From Raillietiella orientalis (Eukaryota), in NCBI GenBank assembly GCA_036172245.1, contig JAYWIR010000078.1, positions 310,001-358,622 of the forward strand: DNA of 48,622 nucleotides. The letters are read 5' to 3'. The position numbers were made by a program, and so were the translations under genes. Every line of letters begins with the position of its first letter. The stretch's first letter is position 1. Positions 21,103 to 48,622 of this stretch are shown here, one piece after another. The notes below the pieces were generated by a model that had not been told where the DNA came from, ran no database searches, and worked only from the letters and a program-made list of their open reading frames with translations.

Positions 21103-21919
21103 ATGGAAGAAAAACTTGAACCATCACCAAAGTTAAAGGTATGTGAAACGAGGAACCATAAAATTTGAGTTTGAAGGTAGACAAAGACAGTTGTTAAGCC
21201 CATTGTGTATGGAAATGTAGCAAAATATTTTGGAAAAAAACGAGAAGATGATGGTCATACCCATCAGTGGACAGTTTATGTGAAACCATACCATAATGAG
21301 GATATTTCTGTTTGGGTTAAAAAAATTCATTTCAAACTTCATGAAAGCTATTCGAATCAGAATAGAATAGTTACAAAACCTCCATATGAAATAACAGAAA
21401 CTGGTTGGGGCGAATTTGAAGTCATTATAAAAATTTACTTTCAAGATCCTGCAAATGAAAAGCCGGTACCTTTTATTTATAGTCTGTTGTTGAATTATTA
21501 TCAAACTTCTGATTTCTCTTTAGGTCACTTTATATCATATTTTGCGTCTTTTTCACACAGGACAGGATGCCTCAAATGAAAAAACTGTTGTAGTATCAGA
21601 ATCATATGAAGAAATATTATTTTATGATCCATCTCCTCTTATGGCCCAACTTCTGTCTACCAACCGCTGCAGCACACTTAATGAATATAAGCATGAAACA
21701 GACTGTATGATATTCATATGATTATTATTAAATTAGTGATGTGATTTGTTTTCAGTTGAAAAAGAGAAGGTGAAATCTTTGACATCAATTCTTTCAGCCA
21801 AAACAAAAATACAAGATGAAATAAGAGATTTAAAGGATAAGTTGAAATTGACAAAAGAACTAATTGCCAACTTTCGTAATGAAATTAATAAAGTTCAGAA
21901 AGAATACACAGGTTCCTAG
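21103..21919 (+). CDS. YEATS4: YEATS domain-containing protein 4 (Gas41), 221 aa, 4 exons
   Basis: Exons 21103-21138, 21181-21465, 21524-21704, 21756-21919 (TAG), 666 nt in frame. [32 protein letters not shown]...FKLHESY...[21 protein letters not shown], then [10 protein letters not shown] and a C-terminal coiled coil, as in YEATS4. The ATG at 21103 is inferred. Confidence 0.95.
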
Positions 21920-24786: not shown

Positions 24787-25146
24787 CAGATTTCTTGCAG
24801 ATCTACTATCATGATAGGGATAGCCCTTTCTTAACTGTGCATTAAATTTATTCAATCAGCACTTTTTAAAATAAAACGAACTCTTTGCAAGTCGGCAATA
24901 GCAAAACGATTCACAGTTTCAAATTTTGTTATAAAGCTGATTTAGTTTCGCAACTGGGTATGACTTGGTAACCATGAAGGGAAAAGGTATGTTTTACGTG
25001 TTGCGAGAGTTTTGTTGGTATGCTGCAAACGAGTGATAGGGTATTTAAATTATTACATATTCAAATTCCCCGTTTATTTGGAACCATGATGTGCTAGATT
25101 ACCGACTTTTCTTGAATTCTGCAAGATAATTTTATCCAATCCAACA

Positions 25147-28100
25147 ATGGCTCTTCACTTAGTGGTCAAAGTGCATCCCGTAGTACTGTTTCAAATTGTT
25201 GACTCATATGAAAGAAGAGATGAACATGCTAGGAGAACCGTTGGAACGCTTTTGGGTAATAGAAAATTCCTGTTTTTTGTTACGATGCTTTGGAACTTTT
25301 ACAAATATGAAAAACATCATCTGATGGTTTTACCATGCCATGACGTGATATTGTAAAGGTCACAGCCTCGAGATGCATTGGACTATTAAGAATTTTTTGA
25401 TTTAGATTCATTTCTACCAAAATTAACTTATGGCGAATTAAGTTGAAGCGAAATGTCATAAATGATTGTTTCTTATATAGTGCTGGTTTATCTTTTGAGT
25501 ATTTCAGTACTGTACCGAAATACTTTATTAAGTTTTTTAATGTTGCAAATGTTTTGGTTTTCTTATCTGAAAAAAAGGTCTGCTGAACTTTCACGAAGGT
25601 CTGTTAATTAAGCATTTGTTCTGTTAGCTTTATCATCATACCACATTCTTTAGAATTTGGTATATTTTAGCCTTTCTAGCTCCTAAGAGATAGTTAATAG
25701 ATTTTGCGAAGTGTTTATGTTCTTCCATCAAGTAAGCGCTTTTCACATGTCCTTGTAATATTTTATTGCGTGGTACTTTTGAAAAAATTCTTATTGTTGA
25801 TATTGTGTATGATGTCCCGGGATACACACAGAAGTGTGTATTCCGGGACATCAGTTTTGACATTACGATCATTCTGAACAAAATTCCGGTGTTCATGTAA
25901 AAGAAAAAATGATCCTAAGCGACTCTTGAAGTCTTACCTATAAAGTTAATGATCATTTGAAAGAAAACGTTTTTAAATTTTATGAATCATGACATTTCAT
26001 GAAGTAATAACATACAGGAAACCTAAATTACACAGACTGTATTGAATTTCACCGTAGCTTCCCTGTACAAAATGTGTTTTATGAAATTACAAGTATTAAA
26101 ATTTAACTATGGATTTCAGAATTATATTGATCTTTAGTGATCAGATATTATGAATATCAGTGAATAATAGTGTGGAACACCACAGAAACTTTTTTGACTA
26201 ACATTCTGTAAGTTGTTAAGTTTGTGGTTTTTTATGATTTAGAATATTCAAAGTCACTATACTTCATGTGTAAAGGATGTTAAGGATGAATTATGACAAT
26301 ATTGTTATTTCCAGTATGCTCAGGGTTCATATTGAGTGGAATGTGTTATTTTTGTAAATTTTGGGCTTTTAAGTTACACTACTTGTTTATAAAGCAGGAA
26401 AACCACATTTCCAGCTGTATTCTAATTAGATGTATGAAAGTATTTTAAGTCTTTAGCATTTATGATGTTTTCATGCTATCTGTTATATCTCATCCATTTG
26501 GTTGAGTGTATTTCAAGTTTTTTTAGGTTGGAATTTAACATCTGAGAGTATTGATTCTGCTGGTGATGTTGCTCTCCATCTGCATATGTGCAATCATTTT
26601 TATTTTAACCATAGGCACCATAGTCATTTACTTAGTATCTTAAGGGCTATCTAGAAAGGTTGGAAGGAAATGTTGTATGTATGCCATCTTCTGTCAGCAT
26701 TTTGTCTAGAGCATGCATTTTCAGTGACCAGCAAGTGTGAATTTAATTTTAATTAAATATTTTGGACTTGTCATTTTTTATGCATGGCATATCTCACACT
26801 TAATGGATGATGTTTTCATTTATTATTTTTAATTGAATAGAACTGATATGATAGAACATGATATTAAAATTGAATATGAAGACAACACTGTGTTTTATAA
26901 AAAGTATAAATGGTCACAGTTCACATGACTATGGTGAAACAAGTACCCATTAAATGTAACTTTTGTTATAAGTAGAGTTACAAGCTTGTACTTGTTATTT
27001 GCAGACTTATTTTAATATCATGTCATTTTAATATAACTAGTAAAGAAGTTTTGAATGCTATGCAATTAAGTTTCCAAGAATGATTTCTAGTGATATAGTG
27101 AAGTAAATAGGGGATTTCTTTCAGGGTAGATTGGTTTCTAGATATATTCCATATGTATTTGATATGCTAGTAGGGAATCCAATAGAGTGATCTGTAAAAA
27201 AAAGTATTTTGGAAACTTCATGTTTTTAAAAGGCTTCATTCTAGATGAAGAATTTGGGTTTAGTGATTGTACTGCATGCATTCTAATTTCTCACTTCCCC
27301 CTCCCATTTGCAGTATTTGACTTCCAAATAATGAAAAAGTTCAATTACTGGGTCGCTTTTATAGTGATTGATTTTGATCATTATAGAATATCCATAAGAA
27401 ATCAAATTCTTTTTTGTTTTTTTTATGTTGCAGTGATAAATTATTCAGATACAGAAGTGTGAGTATTAAGCATGATCTCTTATGGTTTTCATTGACATTG
27501 AATATAGAGCTATGACCTAAACTTGTGTGTTATTTACTTGTGATACGAAATATTCTATGTATCTTACAAACAAAGTTGAATGCGAGTGGAATCAAAAATT
27601 GTATGAAGATCTGTGAATGGAGATGATAAGCTATTTTTTTGGAATGTAATACTGTGGGAGCAACCATGCATAAGACTATCACCAATTTTAATAAAACAAA
27701 GTTTCAAATAAAGTTTCATTTCATTATCAGGTACTTATACACGAATTGTTTCGATATATGTTTTTTTCAGATGTATAGGTTAGGTGGTTTTCATTTAGCT
27801 ACCTGTAAATATGATTTTGTAATAACAAACAAAAATATCTGTTATTGTGGGAAGTGGGAATATTTTTAAGGAATCATATTCATCTGAAATGTACTTCATT
27901 TTGTTGCAGAACTTAGTTTTGTTCAAAATTTTCTTTCTAGGAACTGTGGACAAAGGATTTGTTGAAGTTACTAATTGTTTCTGTGTCCCTCACAATGAAG
28001 CAGAAGAAGAGGTATTGAATTGATTAATAGAAGAAGTGTAAACAGAGATTATGCTTAGGTTGTAATGGGCATTGACTTTGCAAAAGAAATGTTTGATCTG

Positions 28101-29453
28101 TATCATAAAGTCAATCCATCAGAAGTAATTGTTGGTTGGTATGCCACAAGTCCTTATGTGAGTGAACATTCAGTGTTGATTCATGATTACTTTTCAAGAG
28201 AATGTAATCAGCCTATCCATTTAACTGTGGACACCTTTTTGAACAATATGCGAATGAGCATAAAGGCATATGTTGGGTAAGGTGATTTGAAATCTTGAGA
28301 ATCTTAATGAGCTGTCCTTCATTTTCATCAGTGTTCCAATGGGTGCACCCAATCGTACACAAGGCATAATGTTTGCACCTATCCCTGTTGAAATATTAGC
28401 CTTTGAACCAGAGCTAGTAGGAGGTATTTTCTTATATTTTAACTTGATAGATCAAAAATGATAATTAATGGAGATTCATTTAGTAATTAAGTATAAACTA
28501 AGAACTTCCACTTGTTTGACTGAAGCTGTGAAACAGTTACACAGTTTTACTTTGGTATTTTATTTGCAATTTGCTTTAAATTTGGCTTAAAGTATAGGTG
28601 TTGCTGTATATCTATATTGAAAATCTGTTGTTTTCTGTTCAGTATATCGTTATTTGTTATCTTCTTTTGTTTGAGTAGCAGACATAATGCAAGATTAACA
28701 TGCAACTTATAGCAAAGAAAAAGTAAAAAAATAAATAATATTTGAAAATTGAATATAGTTTCTAAATTTTCTTGATACTCTCAAGATAATTTCAGTTTAC
28801 AAGCAATATATTTTATGAATTGATTTAAGTAGGTTTGGCCTGATAGCACATTCAAAAAGATCAGTTAATGTAGTTTTCCCCTTAATTTTCCGTCGGTGAA
28901 ATGACTATTGTATTCACCATTGAATATTCATTACTCTTCTTTACGTATGGATAATTTTGGTTTTGTTTGTTTCGGAATCAAGGAGTTATATTAAAGGGAA
29001 AGAATAACGAATTGCGTTGAACTCCATGCTCAGAAACATTGATTTGTCTCTGTCTCCTTTTTTCACAGTTCAAGTAGCACAGAAAACCAAATGTTCTTCT
29101 GAAAGGACAACTAAATGCCAGTCAGAGTTGACCCAGATTGCACATGTCACAGGATCCTTGGAGATCATGCTAGACATAGTGCTCAATTATGTGGAACAAG
29201 TTGTTTCAGGAAATGCTACGCCTGATAATAAAGTTGGGAGATTGCTTCTGAAACTCATTAATTCTGTACCTAAAATGAATCCAGAAGAGTTTGAGGAGAT
29301 GTTAAACACCAATGTCAAGGTCAGGAAATTAACAATAAATAATCTTTATCTTATTTTCATCAGGATTTGCTGATGGTAATTTATCTGTCTCAGTTGTGTA
29401 GAACTCAAGTGTTGATCAATGAAAAGCTCTGTTTACTGAATGCTGGAACATGA
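25147..29453 (+). CDS. EIF3F: Eukaryotic translation initiation factor 3 subunit F (MPN domain), 276 aa, 6 exons
   Basis: Exons 25147-25255, 27941-28011, 28059-28276, 28332-28423, 29069-29319, 29364-29453 (TGA), 831 nt in frame. [65 protein letters not shown] and [11 protein letters not shown]...QVLINEKL are typical of eIF3f. Confidence 0.95.
25810..25853. repeat. Near-perfect inverted repeat (20-bp stem, 4-nt loop) in eIF3f intron 1
   Basis: TGATGTCCCGGGATACACAC-AGAA-GTGTGTATTCCGGGACATCA: 19 Watson-Crick pairs plus one G-U on the + strand. Confidence 0.9.
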
Positions 29454-29458
29454 ATAAA
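29453..29458 (+). promoter_or_regulatory. Candidate polyadenylation signal of eIF3f overlapping the stop codon
   Basis: TGAATAAA: the AATAAA hexamer shares its first A with the TGA stop; T-rich sequence follows. Confidence 0.5.
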
Positions 29459-29799
29459 TTCTTTCGAACAATCTTGGCGTACGAAGTTTTTTATTCATGA
29501 GTAAGATACAACTCAAATGGGTAGCATTTTCATTTTTAATGTGGATAAAACGCTACGTATGCATGATGAAACATACAAAGAAAAAGTGTTTTGACAAGAA
29601 TTCAAGTGTGTCAGCTTCTTAGGAAACTTTAGAAAACAGCATGGTGTCTTGTCACTGGGACTGGAAACATCAGCATGCTTGGTGCTCACAATCTCCTCGT
29701 CGAAAGACTCCCTAATAGTTGACTGCATGGTGTTGCAGGAGTACTGCTGTTGAGATGAGAAACTCACTTGCTGCAGTCCTATATTGATGACAACCTGCA

Positions 29800-31010: not shown

Positions 31011-32076
31011 ATTCTGATTCTACGTAGGCGTTTAGTCGTCATAAGTGCAAACATTAACAAACCAGTAATATAACACATTAAAAAACACACAGAGAGAAAA
31101 ATATGAAAGAGGAGAATTCCGAACACATTTCCTCCGTTTCAGCCATGATGATACACCTTCATCAGCCGAAGGAAACTCATTATCCAACCAATTACCTAAT
31201 AACCAGGCCGTCCATCTCCTCATAACACGGAGAACACCTAATAATTAACCTAAAATTGGATTCATGCTCCCTTGCTTTCCCTATCGATAAGAAGATGGAG
31301 TTGCTGGCAACGCCGTTTATATCACATGTGAGATCATGAAAACAGAAAAACGGGAAGAGCTGATCAATGAGTTCATTATGTCAGATCGTTCTCTGGTGTA
31401 CCACCCTAACCCAGTGAAACACCAATGACTTCACATTCCGCTGGTGTTTCTGCGAATCACGACTCTCTAAGCATCCTTTAAGGATCGCATTCGCACCCTT
31501 TGTACTGTTTTCCGAGCGAACGGAAGTGGCGACTCAGATCGTCATTCCAAGCCGTTCATGACGGAGACACGAGGCACACGCACATGCAACACGCTCGACC
31601 CTTTCATTTCGTCCCGTCTCTCTCCGTCGCGGAAAGGCCTCTCTTTCACGGGAAAGAACACGCAGGAGGCCTTCGGTGGTTCGTCGCTGCCAGCTGACAA
31701 GAGATCTTTCGGTTCGCAGCTCGCCTTCCGAGCGTCCCACGAACGCTCACTTAACAGTCCCGCTGATCCCACATCACACGCCACCCTTCAGAAAGTCACC
31801 ATTGACCCCGAGAGTAGTCGGATAGATGAGGCGGTCAGAGCTATGATGGGGGCTATTATGTCTCTGCTAATTGTGGAAAGTAGAATCATTGCTGATGGTG
31901 AGAGGGAGATGATGAATATGGGAGTTTTTGTCAGGATAGTATCGCCACTCGAGCTGAATCCGACTCGAGCAGGCTCGCGTGGATGTGCAACAAGCTTCAC
32001 CCAACGGTCCCGCTTTTGGTGGCTTCTTTCCGGTTTCCCGGTCAACTGAGAGGCCTTCTCGAGCAACCCGAGCTAG

Positions 32077-35000
32077 ATGTCTCTGTCCTTGCGCGCGGTA
32101 GCATCCCCGATATCCCCCCGCAGCAGGAAGGAAGTAGAACGATACGCACCCTCAGCTGTTCCCAAGTTCCTCGTTAACACGGCCGACCCTGGCAGCGACG
32201 TCCCCACACGTGAGCAGGGATTGCGCTTCCTAGCCGACGCACCCTGCCGCGGACAGGACGTTGGGAGCGGCAACAGCAAACAGAAGAGAAAGAAGGCGGG
32301 AACGCTGCGGTGAGGGAAGGGGTAATCGGGAACTGGAAGCAGGTTTTGCACCTCCGGCTGCACTCACCGGTGAAAACGCAAACATCAAAATGGAGACAAA
32401 TCAAGCGCATTCCAGGAAATCCTCCCCATGGGAAGACATTCGAGCAACCACGCTGGAAACAAACGCGGTACTTCCTTTGTTCGCCACGGATGCCGAGAGC
32501 AGTTCTCGCGATCCCATTCCACCGTACACTTGATTCCCTCGCTGGACCTTTTTCAAGCGTGCTGCAAAACCGCTTGCTGAGGAAAGCTTGGCTGACTACA
32601 ACTCGACACATTTCAGCTCCGCGCAACACGCATGCAATCATACACGGATGCGCAGGCGCGCCAGTAGTTTTTCCCTCAGTCTCGAGTTGCCGCAGGTCCT
32701 CGTTGAGACCTCGAGATTCGATCACAGCTTCCCCTCCCGTCGACGAGACTTTCTTGGGCGCCTCCCTTTCCTGGGAGCTGTCGCATACGAGCGCCACCAT
32801 TCAGCCGATATCGCACACCTCGCAAGGGACTTCCAGGGGAAGTCCCGAGTTCCGTGCGATGCGTTCCCGTCAGATCTGTGCCCACCGGTCTACTCCAACC
32901 AACCTGCAAACGTGATTGCAGGTGGTCGGACTGCAGGCTCGCCAGCGCCGTTTTTTCCTTCCTCGTCTCGCCTGGCTCGCACACGCTCATCCTTTCCTTT
33001 CCAGGTGCCTGGATCTGAGGGCTGCCTACCTTTGCCAGAATGAAAAAAATGGCACCGCCCTTCCCGAAGGAGATTCCGACTCTCCTCATTCGAAGAACGA
33101 TCTATTCTTCTCAAGGGGGTGCCAGGCAAAGGAATCCCTGATAGAACGGTGAGAAATGCTGCCTGCCTCGATCCTTTGCTCGCCTACGCCCATGCGAAGA
33201 ACGCGGCATTCGAGCTGATCCGTGCGTCTGCGCTCCGCGTTGAGAGCTTGAATATCTCGATGAGCATGGATGCCATTCGAGAGGTTTCAGGCGAGCCGTA
33301 CGGTCTGCCCATGCAATCAAATGTGTGCCTTGCCAAATAGCTGTTACGTACCAGGAAGAACCATCCGCAGCGCGCGGATGCTCTCATTCACTTACGCAGA
33401 CACATCGCACCTCTTCCCACCCCGAATTGTTTCCGTGGAACGTCATCACCTGAGCGAAAGACCCGAAAGCGGCACTTCTTCGATCCGGAGGAGGCGGCAG
33501 GCGTTGCGACCACCGCGTGCTTCACCCGACCGATTGGTTCACCAGAGGACTCTCCGTCGCCTGCCCTGTGGCAATAGGGCGAACGCTTGTTGGTAGATCC
33601 TGCAATCGGCTTTCGCTCTCCTTCTGGAGGTTTCCCGCTCATCCACTCGCCGAATGAAGAGCTTCATCCTCCCGTTGCTGCTGGTCCGAACTGGAATTGG
33701 CAAATCCTCCCATCTTGACTGGATCCGTGGAGAGGGAGACGCCGCTTTGGAAACAAAGGACACTTCGCGTATGCAGTGTCCCCACCATGAGAGACTCGCC
33801 TTGCGTTCTCGCTGCGTGACGTATGCGGGCTGTCTCTTGCTCAAACGAGAAAACACTCGCGACCCCGTCGACCTTGTCCACCGTCTCCTTGGCAGAGGAC
33901 CCGCATGATCGCGCGGATCGTTGCCGCCGACGAAAGAAAATTATGGAAAACTGCGCGACGCCTCCTCGTTCGATAGTTCCCTCCGGATACGAGCTGACGA
34001 AGATCTCCCCTTGCATGCACCCGTACAGTCTTCCAGCACCGAGTCATCCGCACGGTTTGTTGTCCAGAGGCTGTCCAGTCCCGCAGGAGGATAGGCTGGA
34101 GTAGTCTTATTTCGCGGACAACCGGAAACCGGAACCGGGTACCTGGAAACGCCGCCAGTCGTGCGAGGAACACAAACCTGCGAAACGAGACGTCGCCTTC
34201 CGCTCCAGCTTCCGGAAGACGAGATGGTGCTCACCCCATCTCCCATTCGCGTAGTTGGCATGTCCGGTTCTCGCGCAGGTCTTTCCTGTGAAGGGGAACG
34301 AAGAGATCTCTTCTCTTGCTCCCCGCGCGGAGGTTTAATTCAGGCATTCGCTCTGATCATTCAATCGGCCTTGGAGAGGAATCTCGGCGGCAAGGTGGAC
34401 ATTTCTCGCCAACGGCCCGTCTCCTCTCGGGGGATGAGTAGACCTGCTGGCGCCATCACGGGTGTCAGGAGATGCGGATCCGGTCCGTAGGGGCTCCTTC
34501 CGAACCTCTGACAACGGACAAGGATGGCAGTGGGAAAGGCAGGGATGCTCTGTTCAGCTAAGCGTCTGGGTCGCAGGCTACGGAAGCCTGGAGCACGTGC
34601 TCCGCGTGGGGGTAGGCCTTGCCTTTAGCCTGCCTTTTTCCTCCACCACGTCTTCTGCTTCTCTCTGGGGCGATGGTTTCTGCATTTTCTTTCATCCGAA
34701 CGAGGCGAAAGTCCACGTGTGATGATGCCCGGCTCCTCTTGCAGGGACCTCTTGTTCGGGCTGACGGACGTAGAGGTGTCCTACGAGCAGGCTCGGATGT
34801 ACTCTGAAACTCTGGCGCTGAACCCCGAGGCGTCCGAGGTGGTCTTCAATGTGCTGGATGTGATGGGAAGGTAGAGTTCCGAGCTCCGGCGATGGAGGCA
34901 CTCCTGCTTTCCGCAAATAGTCCTTCGCATCACCCGAAGGACCAGAAAAACTTGCGGCCGAACTCCGCCAGAGCATGGGGGCTACTTCCTGGAGTCTACC

Positions 35001-36920
35001 TCTGCGACACGGAGGTGGCAGCCCAGGTTGATTTGCCTGCCGGCAGATGTGGTCTATAGGGTCCCCTGCTCTTTTTGACCTGTTCCTCGCACTGTCCTCT
35101 TTCTTCTCCTTTCATCGTCTCGCTTCTCTCTTCCTTGCGTCCCTTTCAATCTTTTGGAGGGACTGCAGCTCCAGCAAACTTAGGAGTGGTGTGGGATGGG
35201 TCCAGAGCTCATCATTTTACGATTTGTGGGACTTTCAGAAGAGGTCTGCTGAATCTGCAATGCTCTCCTGTATAGGGGAAAGGAAAGAAAGAAGGAAAGG
35301 AGGAACAGTTTCCGTAGCAGTAAGTGGATGACCTCCGTCTACTCCCATCCCTGCCTCCTTCTCTGATTTCAACGCGTCTGTGCATCGTTTTGGGCGCTGG
35401 CAGCCGCCAGGATGTCGAGAAGCGCCATAGCAGATGTCAGCAGGGTCCGGCGGTACTTTGCAGGCATTTCTTGCCGAGATCGCGGATTGCTGCCCTCCGG
35501 TGACCAGGTGGTTTCCTTGACGGGTCTCATTTGAACGAGGAGCGTCCTCGCTGGCAGGTGCTCGGTTGCCACTGCATCGCGGAAGAGGACGCTCCCATAC
35601 TTCCCAGGTGAGCGATCCAGTAAGTGCGAGGACAGTTTTCCGAGTCTAAGGAATGTCCTACTCTGGGGAAGCGGAGACGCTGGGGAAACCCTGCGGGCTG
35701 CCCCTGAGCAGATTTCGGAGCCCTGCTTCCGGGATGGATTTCGGACTCTTCTTTCTTCTCACCTCAGAAGGACGAAGCGTGCGTCCTGCGGACTGATGCC
35801 CGCCGAACTTGACCCCTTCCCCTGACTGAGGCGCTGCTACCTCCGTAGGGTCAACGACTGGGAAGCACGGAGGATCGTCGATGTGCTGACCGAGTTCTCG
35901 AAGTACACGAGCACTGGGATCCAGGAGAACCAGGTATTTGTCGCTCAAGTCCCGACTGAGAGAGAGGGTGGGAGACACGCGCAGTGGGAGGGGGAGCCGT
36001 GGTGGCGGTCCTGTGTGGTGTCATTCGGGATGATTCTTCCTCGATTCGCTCCGTGCTGCGCGCATTTGCTGTATGGGAGCTCAGTCCTCACTACGAACGG
36101 TTCGAAGGCGCAGCGGGTCCATGAGGATGCTGGGAAGGATGTCGGGACGCCAGAAGGTCCCGCATACAGGGAGTGGGTTGGACGCTACCCTGTGGCTCCC
36201 CAATCAGCGGAGGAATGGCGGGATGCATCTGCGTGGACCATGCACCCTCTCGTCCTCCACGCCCTGTCGTGGCCTTGCGCCCGATCTGGTTTTGTCCCGC
36301 CTACCCGATTCCTCTCGGAGAGGAGAGGCGCCTGTGGACGTAGCAGCTACTCGTATCGCCGGTCCTTTTCTTGGACGCGGCCTCTCCAGGGAACCCTTCT
36401 CTCCACCATCTCCCTTTGGCTAGAGGGCCAGCAGGTAAGGATTCTCTTCCCTCCGCTCGACCCGGATGCTCCGGGAAAGAAGGAAAGCAGGAAATCCCCG
36501 CTTCTGCTAGTCCACCGCTCCTCTTCCCTGCATGCTTCCATTTCAGGAACGCCTCCCGTTGCACCCTGTCACGGCTCAGGGTGACGTCCGTCCTCTCCCT
36601 CCCATCTCATTCGCGGCGAATGGCCGGAGGGGGCTCGGCTTTTTCGATCTCTCTCTGGGACGCGTGGGCCGGAGAGTGGACGCCCGATGGAAAGGAGGGT
36701 GGAAAGCGCTCCCGACCGGACGGGGATGCTGAGAGGAGGAACCTGGCCTGACCTTCCGGTTTCCTTCCAGTTCAACCAACTCGCTGGCAAATTCTCTTAT
36801 CGTGATAACTTGGCGTCCGCCTGCAGGCGAGCTGCCAGCAGGACCCGCGCCAACATGCAGTGGTTGAACGACAATTCGGCCAGCATCCTGGATTCCCTAA
36901 AGAAGATCTTTAGCTACTGA
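32077..36920 (+). CDS. M1 aminopeptidase C-terminal (ERAP1_C-like) domain-only ORF, ~245 aa, 5 exons; start uncertain
   Basis: Exons 32077 (ATG; or acceptor at 32124/32127)-32309, 33005-33148, 34745-34870, 35849-35933, 36771-36920 (TGA) join in frame (phases 2,2,2,0) with canonical sites. The product has landmarks of the aminopeptidase-N C-terminus in order: FLADAPC, DLRAAYLC, LFFSRGC..ESLIER, LALNPEAS, and terminal RTRANMQWLNDNSASILDSL. Similarity judged by eye. Confidence 0.65.
36050..36200 (+). mobile_element. Possible RTE-type LINE fragment in an intron
   Basis: LLYGSSVLT followed, after a frameshift, by MRMLGRMSG, resembling 'lLYGsE.W...emrmLR.i.G'. Confidence 0.3.
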
Positions 36921-39010: not shown

Positions 39011-41414
39011 GATCCCACCCGCAAGGGAATGTCGAAGCAGAGATCGGTGGATTCAGAGCCGGTTCCGGGAGGAAGGAACTACCGAAGTCAAAGACCCCTG
39101 TCCACACCCTTCCTTTTTTATCAGTTTGGTCCTTCCATCCCGTTCCAAGAATTTTCCCGGTGTTTGAGAAGGAACAGTAAAAGCCAAAGACTCTCGCCCC
39201 TGGTACTCCGTCCTCTTCCATTTTCATCTCCTTGCCCACCCATTCCGGACTCCTGTGGTGACTGACCTATGTGTCGATGACATCCTCCCTTGAAATTCTT
39301 TTTGTCTTGTTGCGGATATTGGTTGTTCCCAATAGGTTCATTTGTTGTTGTTGTTTTTCTGAACCAACGTTCCAGCGTGGACGGGTTATAAATCTCGCAG
39401 GCCTCACCAGCTCTCTTATCTCTCTTTTTCTTCCGCAGCAAAGCATGCTCTCGAACCCTATCAAGATGTTCTTCAGCTGCGGAGGCTGCGTGCATTCAAT
39501 TCTGAAAAGAAGGGAGGGTAAAGAGAACTGCTCTCCATCAGTCTTGCGTTCCTTTGGGAGCAGCTACAAGAATATCACTGAAAAGCGCTGATGATGATCA
39601 CGTCTGACGGAGCTCTAGCCGCTGGAGTCTCCCAAAAGTGAGGTTATCTTTTGGGAGCTACAATGCAATCCCTTGGAAGATTTTCCTTACCTTTTCACTT
39701 GTAGCATGCATCCGAGTCGTGATCCTTCTCGTGAAGCCGCGAGCTAAGGGATGGAAGAGAGAAGCGGACACGTTTCGGTTCCGGAGATCGACAGCCCGGT
39801 GAGGTGCTGACTGAGGGCTTCCTGCCGGAGTGCATGGTCTGTCGAACTGGTCGCACAGTCCTCCAGATCCAAAAGCTATGCCTGGAGTAAGCTTTGAGGA
39901 AAGTGGCACCGAAATTGCTTGCGGATGCTGTTAGTGACCGATCGAGTCCCTAGAAAGCACCCACGCAACGAGGAAATGCGATGCTCTCTCCCAAAGAGGC
40001 AGTCCTATTCCTCCTCTCTCCCCATTTGCATTCAAGCGAGTTAGCATGTCATGAACACACCTTTGTCTTCCATTTCTGTTCATATCTCTATCGTTTGACA
40101 AGCGGCAGGCAACCCTCGCCATTACGCGAGGATTGCCTGCAGAGGGACGCAAAAGAGGCAAAACCGTTGTTCGCCTCCGGGGTAGAGAAAAATTCAGCGT
40201 TCTCGGGATGGATATCATTTCGGCGTGGACTCAAGTCAGATGAAGACGGGGAAAGAAGATGGGGGAAGTCAGTAAAGAGAAGGTTCAGGAGGGAGGATTC
40301 GCTTTTCTCATGGTGGTGGATTCCCAATTCCCAATTCTCCACTATTTAGTGGATTCGTCGGTCGGAATTCCAGGGTCATTCCCCTCTCTTTGATGGTCCC
40401 ATCCACTGTTGCTGACTGTCAAGAGGAGGCCAGGATCCGCATTCCGCAAGCTGACGCGCTCCGTACGTGTTGGACTCGTGTGAGCTTGCTGAGTGCAACT
40501 CATTGGGACGCACGGCGCGTGCCAGAGCTCGGCCGGCCGCGAGTCCACTGCTTGGACGAGCCGTGCCTCGGCGCTTTGCATTCGGCTGTGTGGCGAAGCA
40601 AACCGAAACGCGTGAAAGACCGGTAAGTAGGGAAAGCGATCTCGTGAACGCGGTTTCAAGGAGGCTGAACCACGCCTGCCGACCCGCGAACACGCGCAAC
40701 GGATGCCGGCTTCTCTCGGATGCAACTGGCGCGCACCACCAACCAAGCTACGTGAAGGTCCACTCCTGGTCCCAAATGTCCACGGAATTTTCCCGTAAAA
40801 ACAGTTCGGGATCTCAAAAAGGCAGCAAAAAGATGAGGAGCACAGGCACACCTCAAGGCGATCTTCCTGGCGCAAGTCGGGTGTCCTCGTGCGTTTTGCC
40901 AAGCATCTCATGCAGGGCTTGCTGCGGCATTCCCACTTGCAATTCTTGAGTGGACACGAAAAAAATTCCAGCTGGAGCACGCAAAGTTCTCGGGGCAAAG
41001 CGCTTCCTTTCGTGAGCACAGCGACCGGAAGTGGCGAGCTCGAAGAGTTTCTGAGCTGTCTTGGGAAATCATTGCTCTGATCGCGCTCTCGCATCTTGAT
41101 TGAAACTCGGAATTTTCCACTGTGCCGCGAATGCGTTCGACTTATTCCTGCTTTCAGGTAAGGCAAGGATAGAAGGGAAGGTGCTGAGCTGCAGCAGCTG
41201 ATTCTCCCTGGAAATCTGTGGACTCGATTCATCCCTCATGACCTGCGTTCCAGATCATCACATCATTCAGATTTCACAACGAAACGATTTCGGAGTCCTC
41301 TTCAGAGGAGCAGCAATGAGCAGTCCCCTTGGAAGTGCCCTCCGTAGAAGAAATTTTAGCAGAGAATCCTTTCCGGGCTCCCTTTGGAGAACAAATAATG
41401 GAGTGACCTTCTCC

Positions 41415-41586
41415 GGAGGTCTCTCCGGAGAGAACAAGGAAGAGGTTCCCTTGGGGGTTTTCTTTCAAATTCCCCTCCGAAGAGTGCGAGAAGAATGAAC
41501 ACATTCATCCGAAGCCTTCCTGGATTTGTAGGGTGGTCCCCTCTCGGGGTGTCCCCTATCCTGAAGAGTTGACACGCACCCTCGGG
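41415..41586. repeat. Dispersed ~175-bp repeat (second family), copy 1
   Basis: GGAGGTC.CTCCGGAGAGAA.AAGGAAGAGGTTC and CCCCTAT..TGAAGAGT.G.CACGCACCCTCGGG are shared with 45540-45716. A weaker GGTCCCTCCGGAGA match lies near 220-235. Confidence 0.75.
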
Positions 41587-43199
41587 AGGCGCGGACAGCG
41601 CTAATGAGCTCTGTGAGCCACCAAGTGAATTGTTCTTCGGTACTAAGCGAACCAAGAGAAAGAAAACCCGAAAAAAAAAGAACTGAAAGGAAAGCAGCGA
41701 AAGCTGAAGAACGTCAAAAAAATTTCCAGCATCCCTGACCAATGATAATGATATCTTCGCGAGGTTTGCTACTGGTCTCATAAAAAAAAGACATGCTTTA
41801 CAGAGAATTCCCGCGGATTTTCGAAAGAGCTGAAGACATTCAGAGGGATGACCAAGTAAGGTGGTCTGGAATGGTCGAACAAGCGTGATGGAACGCGAGT
41901 CACAAAAGTTTTCTGCCCTCTCAAGGAGTTGCCGATGGGTAGAAGCGTGAAAGAAGGTCGGATAATAAATTTCCTCCTTTCGGAGGCACAAAGTTATGAA
42001 AGAGGAACGAACCATTCAGCGGCTTAGAAACGAGTAAATGACAGAACAGCACAGGCAGACCTCAATGCTGCTGACTGTACAGGATGCTGACTTGTTGCCA
42101 GGGATGTCGTAAATTGGCTCCGTGATCGCATCGCCATCGATTTTTCGATTTTTCATGGAGTGGCAGGAGTCGGCACTTTAGCTGTTGGATTGGGACTCCC
42201 GTACGGCGTTCGCCGCTCTCACTGGACCTGGGAGGCTGTGGTCCTAAACTGCTGAAGGTGCGGATAACGGGAATCCCTCCCGCACTTACCCGGAGACTGT
42301 GTTGCCCCCCGGTCTCTGCGGCTGCGTTACGCAACGGCCCTTGGTGCACCGACGGGCAATCCCAGGGACGTGAGAAAGTGCCTCCTCGCGCGCGAAGCCG
42401 TTTCTCCTGCCGCCTCTCCAGCAGCTCTCTGCTGCTGCCTACGCGGAATTATGGCGGCTAGAGCCACGCGAGAGAAGCACGACGCGATAGGGACGCCATC
42501 TGCTTCGCCCTGTGCTTCCTGGTGGACGGCAGCATGATGGCCCCACTCGTGGCACACTCGGATGGAGCTTGCCGGTATCCTGCAAAGGATGGAGGGGACA
42601 CCCTCCAGCACCCGGTAATCCCTTTTCCAACCCTCTTAAGTTTTTGTGCATGTGTTTTTCTTGTTTTTTTTTTTTTTTTCGTTCGCTCCTTTTCCTTCGC
42701 AGCCAAGACGAACCTCGCTGGTCTGCGTACCGATAACTCGGCAGGTTCTGAACATTTGCGAGCGTTGTAGGACCGATTTCTTCACATCTCTGTTTTTTTT
42801 TTTTATAATAAACGCCCCGACGCTACCGGCTGTTTGCCAAGAATGGGATTTGACCGTCTTTCCGGAAGTCCTCCAGGCAGAAGTTGAACGCTCATGTCGA
42901 TGGCTGGTTTTCTAAACAGGGAAGCAAGAGATGAAAGCACCAATACTTTCGGCGATGCACTTGAAAATGCCGAGACAACCTTGGAAACATCAGAGTCGAT
43001 AACCATCGACGTCACCCAGATCCAGAGCAAGAATAGGATCAGAGGCGGCAGGAAATCGCCTCGAGTGAAACAGAACTGCAAGCGCCACTGATGGCAGCCA
43101 TGGTCAGTGTTCCGACCTCCACGGTGCTCGAAGGATTTGCGCCGCCTCGCAAATCCAAGGAAGTACGGACATGGCTGCTGATTGTGCGGGAAGTCCAAA

Positions 43200-43760
43200 T
43201 CGCTCAACGGAAGCTCCAAATTCAGGATGGAACTTCATTGCAAAGAAGCGATCACGCCGCCTCTCTCTCAGGGGCTGTTCCGGAAATGGAACAAGGGAGG
43301 AAAGTTAGAAGAGGGACAGCACTCTCCATTCGCAATCCGGAAATGGCGCTCATCAACAGATATTGGCGCTGCAATTGTAGGCCTCCATCCAAAATTCCAA
43401 CGGAAACTCAGACTACCAATGTAAAAGTTTTGCATGGCACTCCCCATCGGAAGCCCTGACTAGTAACGAACGTGGAACCATTCGATCAATACCGGAATCT
43501 TTTGCCAAGAGCAAACAGAAGACATGGGGCTCTCCTAAGACCAAAGGTCATGCATGAGGGACATGAGCAAGCGGTGCAGCTGACTCCATTGGAATCCAGA
43601 GCAATATTTTTGCCAGAAGAGTTCAGAGAATTCCCACAGCTGCGCTGTCTGTTGCTATTATTTTCTAGCCTTGTCGCATGAGAATGATGATCTGTGATTA
43701 CCGCAATATACTGCAGTCTCGTTTTCCATAAAACCTTTGCTGGCTTGCTGAGGCCATGTT
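43200..43760 (+). mobile_element. Decayed CR1/Jockey-like LINE reverse transcriptase
   Basis: CKEAITPPLSQGLFRK, NCRPPS (~NYRPIS), NLLP...HG, and AIYCSLVFHKTF (~iylDf.KAF) occur in order, with frameshifts. Confidence 0.45.
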
Positions 43761-44449
43761 CACTCTCGCCATCGTCCTAATTTGAGAGACTACTTTGGAG
43801 AAAGCAACGTTTGACGGAAAGAAGGGCAACTATTCCTGAACAGGGAGCAGAAAGTCATCCCATGAGTTCGGGTTTCCGATGACTGAAATGTTCACTCCGG
43901 CTGTACGTGCAGAGCGAAGAGACAGTTAAAACGACCGTGGCGCAAACGTTCTCTTTCAAGGCGGATGGTGCAAACTTTCGAATACATCTTTTTAGAAGCA
44001 GCAGTGTTCGAAGCCCTGCCTTTTCGCTTCTTCGCAATTGCAGGTCCTCTGCAAGAAGTGCGAATGTCAACTCTCTCGTTCGTATTGTACGGCCGCACTC
44101 TCCTAATGAGGCTGGGAAAGAATTTCCCGAAAGTAGCAGAGAGTGGATAATTGGCTTCTCTTGAAGAACATTTCTTGCTAGGACCAAAGCTCTCAGGGTT
44201 AAGAATACTTTCGTTCGAGTTTCCACTTCTTTCCGCCTGTATGATAAATACTCGAAGGTTCCTAATGTAATGCTTGAGTGTGGAAGCGCCAACCTCGTGA
44301 TGTGGGGGAGATGTAAGAAATGGTGATTATTCGTACAAACTGCAATCCCCCTGTCGATGAGGTAACCGGAAACCGCAAGTTTGAATAATTGAGACAGTCG
44401 GGAAGCGTTGTAACTTTAAATGAAGCGGTGATTGACAGTTGCATTTTCC

Positions 44450-44680
44450 TCCGGCATCGCGCACAGCCTTCCTTTCGGGGTTCTGAGGAGTACAGGTCAA
44501 GTAACACGGCCCATGGCCATCAAGCGTGCAAGCGGGAAGCCGTCTAAAAGCCAGTCCTTATTCATCGATCTTCCAAGCTGATGAGAAAACAAGGCTGGAT
44601 TCAGCGTAGACGAGTAGGTGTCGAACTGGTAACCTGTGTCTCAAGCATTGTGTCTCAATAAATGCGGCCTGATCAATCGA
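44450..44680 (-). mobile_element. LINE reverse transcriptase fragment
   Basis: VRHLLVYAESSLVFS (~hLlyADD.vl.s) followed by QNPERKAV (~iN..Kt.v). Confidence 0.35.
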
Positions 44681-45315
44681 AAAAGGCAACGGGAACAAAA
44701 ATTGGAACTTCATAATTTGCAGAAGTGATCTTCCAGAACTGAGGTGCTTCAGTTCATTTGGTGATTCTCAAGTTTCCATTCAGCGGAGAAAACATCTCCA
44801 CCTACCGCAAGAGCGAAAATACTGCAGAGTACCATCCACTCCAGATGAATCAGCTGATCCTTGCGAACACGGAGATCCTCCGTCAGGATGCTGGCGCTCC
44901 AGCACGTGTGTTTTGCAAGCAACTCATCGTTTTCTACAATCGCAATTTAATTTTTTCCCAGTGAATAAGGAGAGAATCAGCCAATCCACGGATCATGTGA
45001 AATATCGGTACCAATTTGGAAAGCTCAATCACTTTAGTACACGGGAAGAGTGATCGATGTTTTTCCTTAATGTGACGCCGCCTGGATTCAAAGATGGCAC
45101 GAAAGAGCAAACACTTGCTGCTTTGCCTACCTTGTGAGAGCACCCTCATTCTAGCGTCCCAGCTCATTGACACCTCGCATGTGTTCGGCAAAGGGGCCTG
45201 CCTGTGCGACCACGAAATCAACGGATGCACCCTGCTACTGCGAATGGAGGTGGCACGAATGGTGGTCTGCTCGTATAAATGACACTTTCTATGCAATGAA
45301 AAGCTCGCGTTGGCG

Positions 45316-45375
45316 GCCGTGTGACCGTGCGGTCTCCGTGCGTGGTACAATGAGTTGCGGGTTCGAACCCCCTCG
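45316..45375 (+). mobile_element. tRNA-derived SINE head or tRNA pseudogene
   Basis: A-box-like TGACCGTGCGG (45322-45332) and B-box GGTTCGAACCC (45360-45370) at Pol III spacing. No complete cloverleaf. Confidence 0.45.
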
Positions 45376-45539
45376 TGGAGGATCGACGCCGAGAATGGGG
45401 AATGCTTCTTGGCTTCGATTCTCCCGATAAGCCTCTAGATGAGCTGGCTGGCCTTTAGGGTGCGACACATGGATGGCTGAATTTGAGAATTGATGACCCC
45501 TTAAGGTTCTTCCACGAATCAAGGAGCCCGTTCCTTTCG

Positions 45540-45716
45540 GGAGGTCCCTCCGGAGAGAAAAAGGAAGAGGTTCTCCCCCAGTTCCCCTCGGAGACAACCA
45601 GGGTGAGGGTTTCCGAGCGGGAGAGGAACAAACTCCTTCCTCCGGAGCCTTTCTGAATTCACGGGTGCTCCCTCCGGGGTTGCCCCCTATGTTGAAGAGT
45701 GGCACGCACCCTCGGG
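45540..45716. repeat. Dispersed ~175-bp repeat (second family), copy 2
   Basis: Direct diverged copy of 41415-41586. Confidence 0.75.
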
Positions 45717-46379
45717 TGCCGTACACAGTGTTGAAGCGTTTTGCGCACTCCTCCTCTCCTAAGGAGCCGGACGGTTCCTGAGCATTTGGCAAACCGGAAA
45801 CGCTCGCATCCACCCGCAGGAATTTTCACGATGAAAACCGTGTCGATTTTCCCAGATTTCATACCACCAACTAGCTGTCTGGTCCACCGTGCTCTCCTGT
45901 TCCGGAGAGAGAAGTCAAAATTCGCGAGCATGTTATTAGCAGTGGTCGGCGACTGCTCCCGTGAATGCAGGAAGAAGATGGAAAAACTGCAATGCCATGC
46001 TTGCTTGCATTTGCTAGGTTCTCCGTGCTCGAAGGGAATGGCTGAGCACGTAACTACGCGAACGGTGGTGAGAAGACCGTTTGAAATAAATTGAGGTGTC
46101 GTTGCTCAGGTCCTCAAGCCGTGTTTCAACATTTGTCAGCAAGAATGTCATTTTGTGCACATGTGCATTGCGAACTCGGAGCACTCCGTTGCAAGTGCTC
46201 TCTCGTTATAGGGGTTTCCGAGGCGTTGGTTTCCACGTGAAGCAGAGCGCCTCGGGCTTTCGACTGGAGGGAAAATTCTCTTCCGACTAATGATATAGCG
46301 AGACATGAAACAGTTCAAGCGTTATGGTTGATTCGATGGCATCATTCGACATGCATGCACCGAAAGATGAAGGAGGATG

Positions 46380-47240
46380 CCAACACGGAAGTGCATGGCT
46401 TTACGGAGATCCTTAACAGTTTTCCGCCAGCTTCCGCCGCGCTGCCTCGAACAATCTGCATCGTTTCCCGTCCCAAAGGAGATCAATCCAATTCCACACG
46501 TGACGCGCACTTTACAACGACTGGAGTCGCACATCCAGGCTGGATAGCACGATGTATCCGTGCACGGCCGCCGCCAACTTTGGGAAACTTCTGTCGTATC
46601 ATGCCGAACTTTAAGTGACCCACGGCTGCCTCTTTTACAGATGATCATAGTGATGACTCATTTGGTGCTTCCACGGCCTTCCAGCCTTTTCTTTTCGGTT
46701 CGTTTTTCTTGGATCTCCAAGTAATCATGGACCGTTGATCCATATCATAGGAGCATCGGGGAGACCTGACAACGTCGCTTCATGGGAACTCACAAGTCTG
46801 TCATGCTGGCATGAGTTTTCTTCCTTCTCTTTGGAATTCTTCTCCGAACATTTACTATCGGCTGAACCCATGCTCAGATTCTGTTAGCATGGAGCTACCT
46901 GTCCACATCAGGCTACCAAAATCTCGTTGGAGTATTCGCCACCACCATCACCAAATCTGCGCAAACGCTCCAAAAGAGTCCTTGTGCAAACCACTGCTGT
47001 GAGCTCTTTCTCGACCATCCTCCTTGCGAGCACCTGGCGAGCACTCTCAGACAACGCAACTCTGGAGTGCCGGGAGGGCTTCGCTCTGGAGGACGAGTAC
47101 GGTCCTGGCGCTTTAGCGCCATTTGCCTTTGGCATCGGTAGCTTTCCTAAGTGAGTCGTTACCGATAATGCTGTGAGGATTCCGACTTCCATCGCTACCA
47201 TCTTGCATAAAGCAATCAACACCTCACATGAAATCTCATG
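46380..47240 (+). mobile_element. Possible heavily decayed LINE reverse transcriptase
   Basis: FTEILNSF...CIVSRPKGD, then GALAPFAFGI, then VTDNAV...LHKAIN, in RT order. Confidence 0.3.
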
Positions 47241-47899
47241 CCCATCTCTTCAGGTGCTATGTGATGCCCAATGTTTGGGTCGTCCCAGAGAGCCAGTTCC
47301 GCTCATCAAATGGAGGCTGCTAGGTGCTCGTGGATCGCAGGATCTCAACTTTAGCGTTTCGGAAGCCCTGACCTCTCACTTGAAGAATAGACCGAGGTCG
47401 CAAGGACTCCAAGGTCTGACCCTCCGCATCGACGAGCGCCAGGTATCTTCCGGTAAACCCTGGATGGAACCAGCCACCCCATCGGTCCAAGACCCTTTCT
47501 CTCTTACGTCCATTCTACAATGAGCCACCTGCAAGTTCGGATCGCTGCAGACCTCTACCAGAGTTTTCTCTGGCTGTTTCCTAGCAAGAAATGGTCCACC
47601 ATCTCGCATCACGGAGAGCGTAAAGCGGAGATTAGTCAACCCGAAACATCACTCTCGCAACTTCTGAGAAACAAGCAAGAAATTCACTTTGGGGATTAAG
47701 GCCACTCCCAATTTCGGGCAGGCCAATGGCACATTCTGTTTTGGCGCGAGCAGGGTCTCATTATTGCACACTGAAAATCTGTGCCATTACAGCGTTGTCT
47801 CGCGGATGCAGTCCAAGTCCACAATGTGTCCACAACTCGGCGACAATCCCTATGGAGATTTTCAAGCCTGCCACGCCAGTCCACCTCACGGCCATCAGC

Positions 47900-48416
47900 G
47901 CAAAAAAATCGAGTCCCTGAAGAGCTTCAAGAAATGCATGGCAGCAGCGTCCTGAGAGCTCGTGCACCGGGGATTGTGGTCAAGCTGCCCCTCCTTAATC
48001 CAAACAGTCTGCTCTGCATGAGACAGGACGAGAAAGAATATTTCTTCCACCGTTTCGATTCACTGGACCATGCCTTGACACCTGTTGTGGAAGGCAAAGC
48101 ACTTCTAGCCAAACATCTTGCTCACATTGATGCTGTCGACATAGAAGTTGGCACAGAAAATAACGAGTATTTTATCAACGCAGTAAGATAACTTGGACCA
48201 AGTAGGTCAGGAGTAAATTCAAAGGACAAGAGATCAGCAGACTGTCCATAATAGAGAGATGTCCGGGTGAATTGATGGGCATTCTAGTCCACGACGATCA
48301 GCATGAACTTCAGTAGTTGTTGCAGCTGGCCATAGAAAATGCCTCACCTCCGACAACCGAAGCCAGCACCCGAAATTCGGCGTTACCATACTTGGATGCA
48401 CTCCCAAACGTTGCAT
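47900..48416 (-). mobile_element. Decayed LINE reverse transcriptase (palm/thumb region)
   Basis: MQRLGVHPSMV...CWL...RGLECPSIHP, then SYCVDKILVI (~yaDD.lvi), then IETVEEIFFL...TVW...AMHFLKLF, with in-frame stops. Confidence 0.5.
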
Positions 48417-48622
48417 ACGTCCATTTGACTCATTCAGGGAAGCAACCTGCTGAACACAGCCAGAACCGGGAGTATCTTCGAGCCTGCTCGTTGGACACCT
48501 CTGCGTCCGTCAGCACGGACATGGAGTCCCTGCAAGAGGAGCGGGGCATCATCACACGTGGATTTTCACCTCGTTCCGATGAGAGCAAATGCAGAAAGCA
48601 TCACTCCAGAGAGCAGCAGCAA

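Follow-up and report, generated by a model that had tools for sequence, protein, structure and literature searches.

The closest described system to the locus analysed here is that of the animal M1 aminopeptidases of the aminopeptidase N or 'aminopeptidase-2' type (PF17900 + PF01433 + PF11838). Catalytically inactive M1 homologues are also known, for example TAF2 and the nematode M1-like proteins without a zinc site, and these keep the whole multi-domain fold, losing only the catalytic residues. Like the animal M1 aminopeptidases, the locus carries a ...T[RK]AN[IM].W[LM]..N... signature, and its last ~60 residues (encoded by exons E4-E5) align to the end of the ERAP1_C domain, with the stop codon at an equal distance. 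Unlike them, the window (the whole stretch of DNA that was analysed, 48.6 kb) holds no N-terminal domain, GAMEN motif, HEXXH-E zinc site or first half of ERAP1_C, exons E2-E3 are without detectable similarity, and identity reaches only 37% over 49 residues at best (E5, tblastn). A member of the M1 lineage at this locus would, like the inactive homologues, act without peptidase activity, but unlike them it would retain only about the last third of the cap domain. The locus also resembles unprocessed (duplicated or truncated) pseudogenes produced by rearrangement, being a partial set of terminal exons with introns kept and upstream exons missing, and having nearby a diverged inverted copy which ends inside an exon and gives no sign of constraint; unlike such pseudogenes, its exons E2-E5 are free of stops, frameshifts and broken splice sites. 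With moderate confidence, we read the locus as a 3' remnant that has become detached from a divergent M1 gene of the aminopeptidase N type, probably cut off by rearrangement, and a remnant of this kind is most likely when set against a new kind of protein. The predicted product of the locus as it stands cannot be a peptidase.

The chain of five exons proposed in the earlier note was recovered with AG and GT bounds, compatible phases and a single open frame running to RTRANMQWLNDNSASILDSLKKIFSY and the TGA stop (Table 1), its spliced length being 212 aa (639 nt) and not the ~245 aa previously claimed. The frame was indeed open across E1-E5, but openness after splicing is weak evidence in this region because the DNA is GC-rich and stop-poor (GC 57-60% and only 2.1% six-frame stop codons in the exon-bearing part) and because 2895 AG..GT-bounded, stop-free segments of 40-300 nt are present in 31.5-37 kb; computed from the 2.1% of stops, ~6% of random 133-codon frames would be expected to be open here. 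No stop, frameshift or damaged splice site was found in any of the four exons E2-E5, and the splice-site scores of E2, E3 and E5 fell in the 67th-99th percentile of the region (88th-89th for the two sites of E2, 96th for the E3 donor). By amino-acid composition, compared with equal-length stop-free windows in six frames over 31.5-38 kb, E2 ranked 1st of 5389, E3 5th of 7189 and E5 28th of 4495, with E2 and E3 being the most protein-like stretches of the region. E1 was open in frame and compatible in phase with E2, and its composition did not resemble that of proteins (rank 320 of 2280 stop-free windows, LLR -3.3); no relevant Pfam or PDB match was obtained for it, a single PDB match to a collagen domain being dismissed as chance. 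With this ordinary composition, and with a profile score that falls when E1 is added to the product (13.6 bits without it, 12.2 bits with it, on the animal ERAP1_C profile described below), E1 and its ATG are without support.

Table 1. Positions of the exons, the neighbouring gene end and the inverted repeat within the window.
Feature	Positions	Strand	Remarks
Last exon of eIF3f-like gene	29364-29459	+	stop 29451-29453, AATAAA 29454-29459; left limit for upstream exons
E1 (first exon of the earlier note)	32077-32309	+	starts ATG, ends CG|gtgagg, phase 2; coding status doubtful
Left arm of inverted repeat	34655-34804	+	90 nt of intron and first 60 nt of E2
E2	34745-34870	+	acceptor ctcctcttgcag|G, donor AAG|gtagag; 42 codons
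E3	35849-35933	+	acceptor ctacctccgtag|G, donor CAG|gtattt; 28 codons and one split codon
E4	36390-36434	+	acceptor cggcctctccag|G, donor CAG|gtaagg; 15 codons
E5, last exon	36771-36920	+	acceptor gtttccttccag|T; 49 codons and TGA
Right arm of inverted repeat	48470-48619	-	ends 3 nt short of window end

The relationship to M1 peptidases was carried by the end of the product. Against a home-made animal ERAP1_C profile (187 domains, 377 positions), the spliced E2-E5 product scored 13.6 bits (E 1.1e-6, Z=1), with the best of 1000 shuffles of the same product reaching 7.2 bits, and the alignment was confined to profile positions 319-369 of 377 (51 positions), corresponding to the end of E4 and E5. 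E5 alone scored 14.4 bits, a value reached by none of 2000 shuffles, in an alignment that spanned positions 336-369 of 377 and was followed by the stop. Among all 1936 ORFs of the window, the E5 ORF was the top match to this profile (E 0.0075, corrected for all ORFs), and when 120 animal M1 proteins were searched by tblastn, no place in the window matched better than E5. When the same 120 proteins were compared by phmmer, the best match was P0006 (i-E 1.1e-4), named 'putative aminopeptidase-2 [Lingula anatina]' by NCBI, whose alignment crosses the predicted E4/E5 junction ungapped, with E4 contributing 6.2 bits (equalled by 3 of 300 shuffled E4 sequences). Further M1 matches came from molluscs (P0027, P0047, P0058, P0066 and P0067), and the E5 part was included in 38 of the 40 best phmmer domain matches. 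In local mode, hhalign aligned the product to ERAP1_C with E 1.8e-4, and in the PDB E5 matched residues 869-893 of 900 of aminopeptidase N at E 0.45. The match thus lies at the C-terminal end of ERAP1_C (PF11838) and at the C-terminus of the protein, and E5 is of M1 origin.

A search with Pfam ERAP1_C itself (PF11838, 318 positions, cut-off 38.2 bits) returned no match in single-exon ORFs even at E<=10, nor was the whole domain recovered, whereas the animal profile recognised the spliced product at the score given above. A prokaryotic profile (75 ERAP1_C-bearing M1 proteins) proved too remote, giving E2-E5 only 3.0 bits and rank 19 of 1002. The earlier reading of the product as an ERAP1_C protein therefore stood for the last ~50-60 residues (the end of E4 and E5) and not for a whole domain, of which only 51 of 377 profile positions are covered; on these comparisons the M1 link is genuine but far narrower than had been claimed.

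Upstream of E5 the signal faded. E2-E4 alone were not significant against the animal ERAP1_C profile in HMMER (score reached by 324 of 2000 shuffles). In global mode, hhalign placed E2-E5 at ERAP1_C positions 247-385 of 398, and with E5 kept in place 8 of 110 shuffles equalled the real score. No significant similarity of E2 to M1 was found; its PDB matches were to designed TPR proteins only, arose from summed weak repeats and were set aside. E3 aligned weakly and colinearly with mollusc M1 proteins, likewise without significance (P0066, i-E 0.15). E2 and E3 thus appear coding-like by composition, without detectable M1 similarity, and presumably belonged to the same former M1 gene as E5.

The earlier note had found no catalytic exons near the chain, and this absence was confirmed and extended to the whole window by motif scan, M1 profile and tblastn. 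Neither the GAMEN-type motif (G[AG]MEN) nor the zinc site HE..H.{15,22}E occurred in any of the 1936 six-frame ORFs of at least 15 aa, and the WLNEG and WFG[ND]LVT motifs were absent from all six frames of the window. When these ORFs were compared with a profile of full-length M1 (843 positions, from 75 prokaryotic sequences), a single match passed E<=10, its E being 9. With the 120 animal M1 proteins, tblastn found nothing below E 0.046 outside E5 and no match to the catalytic domain, and for the N-terminal part of M1 it gave isolated, non-colinear matches only (E>=0.2). The N-terminal beta domain (PF17900) had no Pfam match in 29.4-48.6 kb on both strands or in 16.2-29.6 kb on the + strand; over the 339 ORFs of these two intervals (16.2-48.6 kb in all, the part 16.2-29.6 kb on the + strand only), the only families above Pfam cut-offs were YEATS, JAB and MitMem_reg. 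Scanned with the animal profile for upstream M1 exons, the interval 29.4-34.7 kb gave nothing exceeding noise. Two candidate upstream segments, 33115-33283 and 34344-34394, were mildly protein-like and were rejected as they carried no M1 signal, the second being also incompatible in phase with E2.

The JAB and MitMem_reg matches fell on neighbouring exons of the upstream same-strand gene, which is an MPN/MitMem_reg gene, eIF3f-like. A word search with its eIF3f-like exon gave 53 candidates, of which none reached E<=1e-5. Its stop lies 2.6 kb before 32077, in agreement with the gap of ~2.6 kb given earlier, and the 5.3 kb between the end of this gene and E2 are without M1 signal. The description of the intervening DNA as 'LINE-like debris' is unsupported because, among the 162 ORFs (both strands, 45 aa or longer) that 29.4-39.6 kb contains, none matched a reverse transcriptase or other Pfam family at E<=0.05. 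The DRE-type motif TATCGATA is present at 31282-31289, but its value as a hint of a promoter is at chance level, at least one such motif being found in 29 of 100 shuffles.

A 150-nt inverted repeat links E2 to the right edge of the window. Its left arm and the reverse complement of its right arm align ungapped with 86.7% identity, differing at 20 of 150 positions: 10 of the 90 intron nt and 10 of the 60 exon nt, the latter changing 7 of 19 residues in the E2 part. The likeness of the right arm breaks off inside the E2-like part, identity falling to 17 of 60 just past the repeat, and the E2-like frame there meets a stop soon past the repeat end. The exon part of the repeat has been kept no better than the intron part, and there is no sign of constraint between the copies, a comparison which says little on selection in E2-E5 because the right copy is itself a stump of 60 exon nt. 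That a diverged inverted copy ends inside E2 points to rearrangement, a reading drawn from one 150-nt repeat that the window end (48622) cuts short.

Of the three readings put forward in the earlier note, the 'decapitated gene' is the best fit, given a window without catalytic exons and an inverted copy that ends inside E2. In this scheme, E2-E5 (34745-36920) would once have coded approximately the final 135 residues of ERAP1_C, the helical domain at the C-terminus, and the locus would have lost its N-terminal and zinc catalytic domains together with the first half of ERAP1_C. Most likely the piece was split off when an inversion, or an inverted duplication, placed one of its breakpoints within E2; the putative stump of that rearrangement is the inverted, diverged copy at the right window edge. 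In its present state, the locus is most probably a fragment of an unprocessed pseudogene in which neither the frame nor the splice signals have decayed so far. Against a relic, the four exons are open, in phase and well spliced, and E2 and E3, lying in GC-rich DNA, have kept a protein-like composition of the sort that neutral change tends to erase from an old relic; because E2-E5 contain no stop, frameshift or broken splice site, we infer loss of function rather than demonstrate it.

The alternative that survives best, and which we nevertheless consider unlikely, is a problem of assembly, in which an intact M1 gene truly ends in E2-E5 and its upstream exons have been misplaced or inverted. The misjoin would then lie within 29.5-34.7 kb or else at the right window end, where the inverted copy of the E2 acceptor region falls at the very edge. 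A change of base composition near 29.5-32 kb had been noted before and is present, with GC climbing from 0.31 through 0.39, 0.46 and 0.48 to 0.58 in 1-kb steps across 28-33 kb, and the only public run with this DNA (X1, a DNA run) consists of contigs of 150-320 nt, none of which bridges the region. The change is gradual, however, and it is matched by a depletion of CpG (o/e 0.14-0.50 in 22-30 kb, compared with 0.7-1.07 elsewhere) in a pattern typical of a methylated gene body beside unmethylated DNA; moreover, GC of ~0.46-0.52 recurs at 1-7 kb of the window. The contigs of X1, which contain 13% of the window's words and fall in 24 of 30 bins, occur on the AT-rich side as well as on the GC-rich one. 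The 20 mismatches among 150 positions show that the two arms of the repeat did not arise by artefactual fold-back of a single molecule.

Less likely again, the locus is a live gene, transcribed from its own promoter, whose product would be a small helical protein (~130-210 aa) that stands alone, is built from the final helices of the M1 cap and acts without catalysis, for example as a binding or decoy module. Such a gene would account for an intact frame over four or five exons with compatible phases and good splice sites and for the compositions of E2, E3 and E5, the most protein-like in the region, and the divergence of E2-E3 from canonical M1 could mean a new function. It would however lack a supported first exon or start, E1 being ordinary in composition and contributing nothing, its DRE motif is at chance level, and no canonical poly(A) signal (AATAAA or ATTAAA) was found within 1.6 kb downstream of the E5 stop. 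The piece covers less than half of ERAP1_C in the global hhalign placement and so falls short of a complete folding unit of the domain. Nor did E5 lead to comparable proteins: a word-based search for longer proteins over 5.8 billion clusters found none sharing words with it, its 9 candidates including none at E<=10, and the ESM Atlas returned no usable match. When 1.84 billion representatives were scanned in full with HMMER, the only matches were two repeat proteins, FG-GAP-like and TPR-like by sequence and unrelated to M1. At listing level, a search of the full-text literature found no paper on stand-alone ERAP1_C proteins, which does not prove their absence in print. The more specific proposal that the tail of an M1 gene has persisted as an independent spliced gene, evolving fast toward a binding or regulatory role and therefore no longer recognisable in E2-E3, appears still more doubtful.

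That the locus is not derived from a gene at all, its frames open by chance in DNA rich in GC and its last 35-50 residues like M1 only by coincidence, is highly improbable: the few stops, the abundance of AG..GT-bounded stop-free segments, the Pfam blank on single exons and the lack of significant M1 likeness in E2-E4 would fit it, but E5 leads all ORFs of the window after correction, sits at the exact C-terminal end of the domain with a stop at the expected distance and is matched by several independent animal M1 proteins, and the composition outliers E2, E3 and E5 coincide with the best splice sites.

The locus has no bearing on a long-standing open question. If it is the detached remnant that we favour, its value is for annotation, since gene callers could misreport it as a short 'aminopeptidase-like' protein, and the inverted stump marks a rearrangement breakpoint next to a housekeeping gene pair (YEATS and eIF3f-like). 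Should expression and selection instead be demonstrated, the tail would stand as a rare example of a subdomain of a peptidase cap that persists as a separate protein, and would merit structural and binding study.

Five candidate exons on the forward strand (E1 to E5, the last carrying the stop codon) were reconstructed from a spliced open reading frame proposed in the earlier note, and every acceptor of the chain was found to be AG behind a pyrimidine-rich tract and every donor GT, with exon phases of 2, 2, 0 and 0 and a joined frame that stays open to its terminus, ...RTRANMQWLNDNSASILDSLKKIFSY, followed by TGA. The five exons and their matching phases were recovered, with a product of 212 aa (639 nt) rather than the proposed 245 aa or so. 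As stops make up only 2.1% of the six-frame translation of 31.5-38 kb, and as 31.5-37 kb holds 2895 stop-free segments of 40-300 nt bounded by AG..GT, an open frame alone is weak evidence here. The chain gains weight from composition and splice sites: on a log-odds score contrasting average protein with the local background in six frames, ranked among equal-length stop-free windows (counts that take in windows overlapping the exons themselves), E2 (1/5389), E3 (5/7189) and E5 (28/4495) were extreme, with E4 (1139/9478) and E1 (320/2280) unremarkable, and the splice sites of E2-E5 lay at the 67th-97th (acceptors) and 89th-99th (donors) percentiles of the region's AG and GT dinucleotides. E2 and E3 probably code for protein and probably once belonged to the same gene as E5. 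The introns between E2, E3, E4 and E5 (978, 456 and 336 nt) each have a length divisible by three, so that these exons share one genomic reading frame, an arrangement with a chance of about 1 in 27 for which we offer no explanation.

Candidate exons of the M1-related chain and recognisable exons of the upstream genes
Feature	Position	Strand	Basis or remark
YEATS exon	21181-21576	+	Pfam E 8.8e-31
JAB exons of MPN gene	25090-25353, 27826-28020, 28059-28277	+	Pfam
MitMem_reg exon of MPN gene	29008-29370	+	Pfam
Last exon of MPN gene, TGA then directly AATAAA	TGA 29451-29453	+	read from sequence
E1	32077-32309	+	proposed exon, reconstructed
E2	34745-34870	+	proposed exon, reconstructed
E3	35849-35933	+	proposed exon, reconstructed
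E4	36390-36434	+	proposed exon, reconstructed
E5	36771-36920	+	proposed exon, reconstructed; ends TGA

Single exons gave no match in Pfam even at E<=10, and E5 returned nothing in a word-indexed protein search (5.8 billion clusters), only two repeat proteins unrelated to M1 in a full HMMER scan of 1.84 billion representatives, and a sub-threshold match in the PDB to residues 869-893 of 900 of an aminopeptidase (E 0.45). Reference M1 sequences were collected from prokaryotes with a GAMENWG-derived DNA pattern (120 loci, complete genes in 75; the cap domain ERAP1_C exceeded the Pfam cut-off in both of the two sequences checked) and from animals with a 530-residue segment of the Lactococcus gene (120 proteins, among those of at least 929 aa only). 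Against an animal ERAP1_C profile of 377 positions, built from 187 near-complete domain matches out of 238 (51 partial ones dropped), the E2-E5 product scored 13.6 bits (E 1.1e-6 as a single test; best of 1000 shuffles 7.2), the aligned part covering profile positions 319-369 only, which correspond to E5 together with the end of E4. E5 alone scored 14.4 bits, reached by 0 of 2000 shuffles, and its ORF ranked first (E 0.0075) among the 1936 six-frame ORFs of at least 15 aa in the window. The runner-up, a 36-aa ORF at 12013-12120 (-), lies on the opposite strand 22 kb from E2-E5 and matches profile positions 63-95 at a non-significant E of 0.11. In tblastn with the 120 animal proteins, E5 was the window's best match (P0006, 'putative aminopeptidase-2' of Lingula anatina, E 0.002), the same exon being found by four more, and P0006 was again the top match of the E2-E5 product in phmmer (i-E 1.1e-4), aligning ungapped over the E4/E5 junction. 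E4 contributed 6.2 bits to this match, equalled by 3 of 300 shuffled E4 sequences, a somewhat flattering figure as P0006 is the best of 120, and local hhalign agreed for E5 (E 1.8e-4). The last exon thus goes back to the terminal part of the cap domain of an M1 protein, and E4 probably does likewise.

E2-E4 without E5 scored -1.1 bits on the animal profile (reached by 324/2000 shuffles), and with E5 fixed in global hhalign the real score was reached by 8 of 110 shuffles of E2-E4. A few mollusc M1 proteins align colinearly from E2/E3 through E5 with ERAP1_C-like spacing, but at i-E 0.09-0.3; read by eye, with no statistic attached, the product tracks the ERAP1_C consensus from about position 232 on, with a gap of about 19 residues opposite its ...IRKQD... 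stretch. E1 gave no relevant match in Pfam or the PDB, and adding it reduced the profile score. The claim of an M1 C-terminal domain is supported for the tail (E5, probably E4) and not for the rest of that domain.

The absence of a catalytic M1 exon, also claimed, was borne out across the whole window: of the 1936 ORFs, a full-length M1 profile matched a single one at E<=10 (E 9, not significant; the ORF of an inverted repeat copy treated below), a scan for GAMEN, HEXXH-E, WLNEG and WFG[ND]LVT gave 0 matches, and tblastn with the animal proteins gave, E5 aside, neither a match below E 0.046 nor a colinear one. Over the 5.3 kb between the AATAAA of the upstream gene and E2, the animal profile found no M1 signal and Pfam no reverse-transcriptase or other transposon domain, which leaves the supposed 'LINE-like debris' unsupported. 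Pfam on 339 ORFs (29.4-48.6 kb on both strands, 16.2-29.6 kb on the + strand) returned the YEATS, JAB and MitMem_reg exons only, a positive control indicating that exon-sized ORFs of conserved families are detectable in the window. Across 39500-48400 (about 9 kb, both strands), 100 ORFs of at least 55 aa gave no Pfam family at E<=0.01, the sole exception being one DUF6349 match below cut-off.

The reverse complement of 34655-34804, a stretch that takes in 90 intronic nt, the acceptor and 60 nt from the start of E2, recurs at 48470-48619 (150 nt, ungapped, 86.7% identical). This copy begins 3 nt from the window end and so probably continues beyond it; within E2 the likeness ends abruptly (17/60 identical just past the repeat end), and the frame of the copy closes after that end. 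Mismatches number 10/60 in the exon part and 10/90 in the intron part, with 7 of 19 residues changed, so that the exon part is no less diverged than the intron part. No other portion of 29-37.5 kb was repeated in the window. The resulting layout is E2-E5 (+), 11.5 kb without recognisable genes, and a minus-strand stump, made up of intron and the beginning of E2, that faces off the window edge. Such a layout would result from an inversion that broke within E2 and duplicated a short stretch at the breakpoint; the remainder of the M1 gene would then be expected on the - strand past 48622. The same 150 nt could equally come from a dispersed duplication of small size. Elsewhere, three adjoining direct-repeat blocks (63-77 nt, 76-92% identical) at 1974-2199 and 4225-4449, at a constant 2.25-kb spacing, suggest a duplicated segment of about 225 nt, and 14578-14635 recurs directly at 15642-15699 (58 nt, 83% identity, 1064 nt apart).

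We favour, with a little over even confidence, a severed and probably dead 3' remnant of an M1 gene, the 'decapitated gene' being the best of the options in the earlier note, with a genuine M1 link that does not extend past the tail. The E2-E5 piece, at about 135 residues less than half of an ERAP1_C domain, cannot be a peptidase.

An assembly problem behind the lone tail is an unlikely alternative. GC along this eukaryotic window is patchy (1-8 kb, 0.44-0.52; 17-29 kb, 0.30-0.37; 32-39 kb, 0.55-0.60), and the AT-rich block holds two + strand genes of housekeeping type, a YEATS exon lying upstream, on the same strand, of an MPN gene with JAB and MitMem_reg exons that is, as had been proposed, eIF3f-like. 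CpG o/e falls to 0.14-0.50 over the body of this gene (22-30 kb) against 0.7-1.07 elsewhere in the window, with a TpG/CpA excess of 1.36-1.40. Such CpG depletion with TpG/CpA excess occurs in animals that methylate the bodies of housekeeping genes; the pattern reads as that signature and explains some of the sharp contrast in GC. The composition change named for a possible join is present, but as GC rises gradually over 28-33 kb and the CpG pattern is methylation-like, it is not by itself a sign of one. The only public run sharing window DNA (X1; 13% of sampled words) gave short contigs on both sides and no bridge, and the 13% divergence of the repeat arms speaks against a fold-back artefact.

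Slightly less probable still is a putative live stand-alone protein. No orthologue or paralogue was found with E5 by the word-indexed search or the full HMMER scan, AATAAA and ATTAAA are absent within 1.6 kb of the E5 stop, and the TATCGATA motif offered as a promoter hint is at chance level (at least one copy in 29/100 shuffles). The MitMem_reg exon (29071-29319, +, 83 aa) likewise drew a blank at E<=1e-5 when searched for relatives in the word-indexed collection, in which this lineage seems poorly represented, and arguments from 'no homologue found' are weakened accordingly. Pure chance is very improbable. As an object the locus is unexceptional, a fragment of a gene from a known family.
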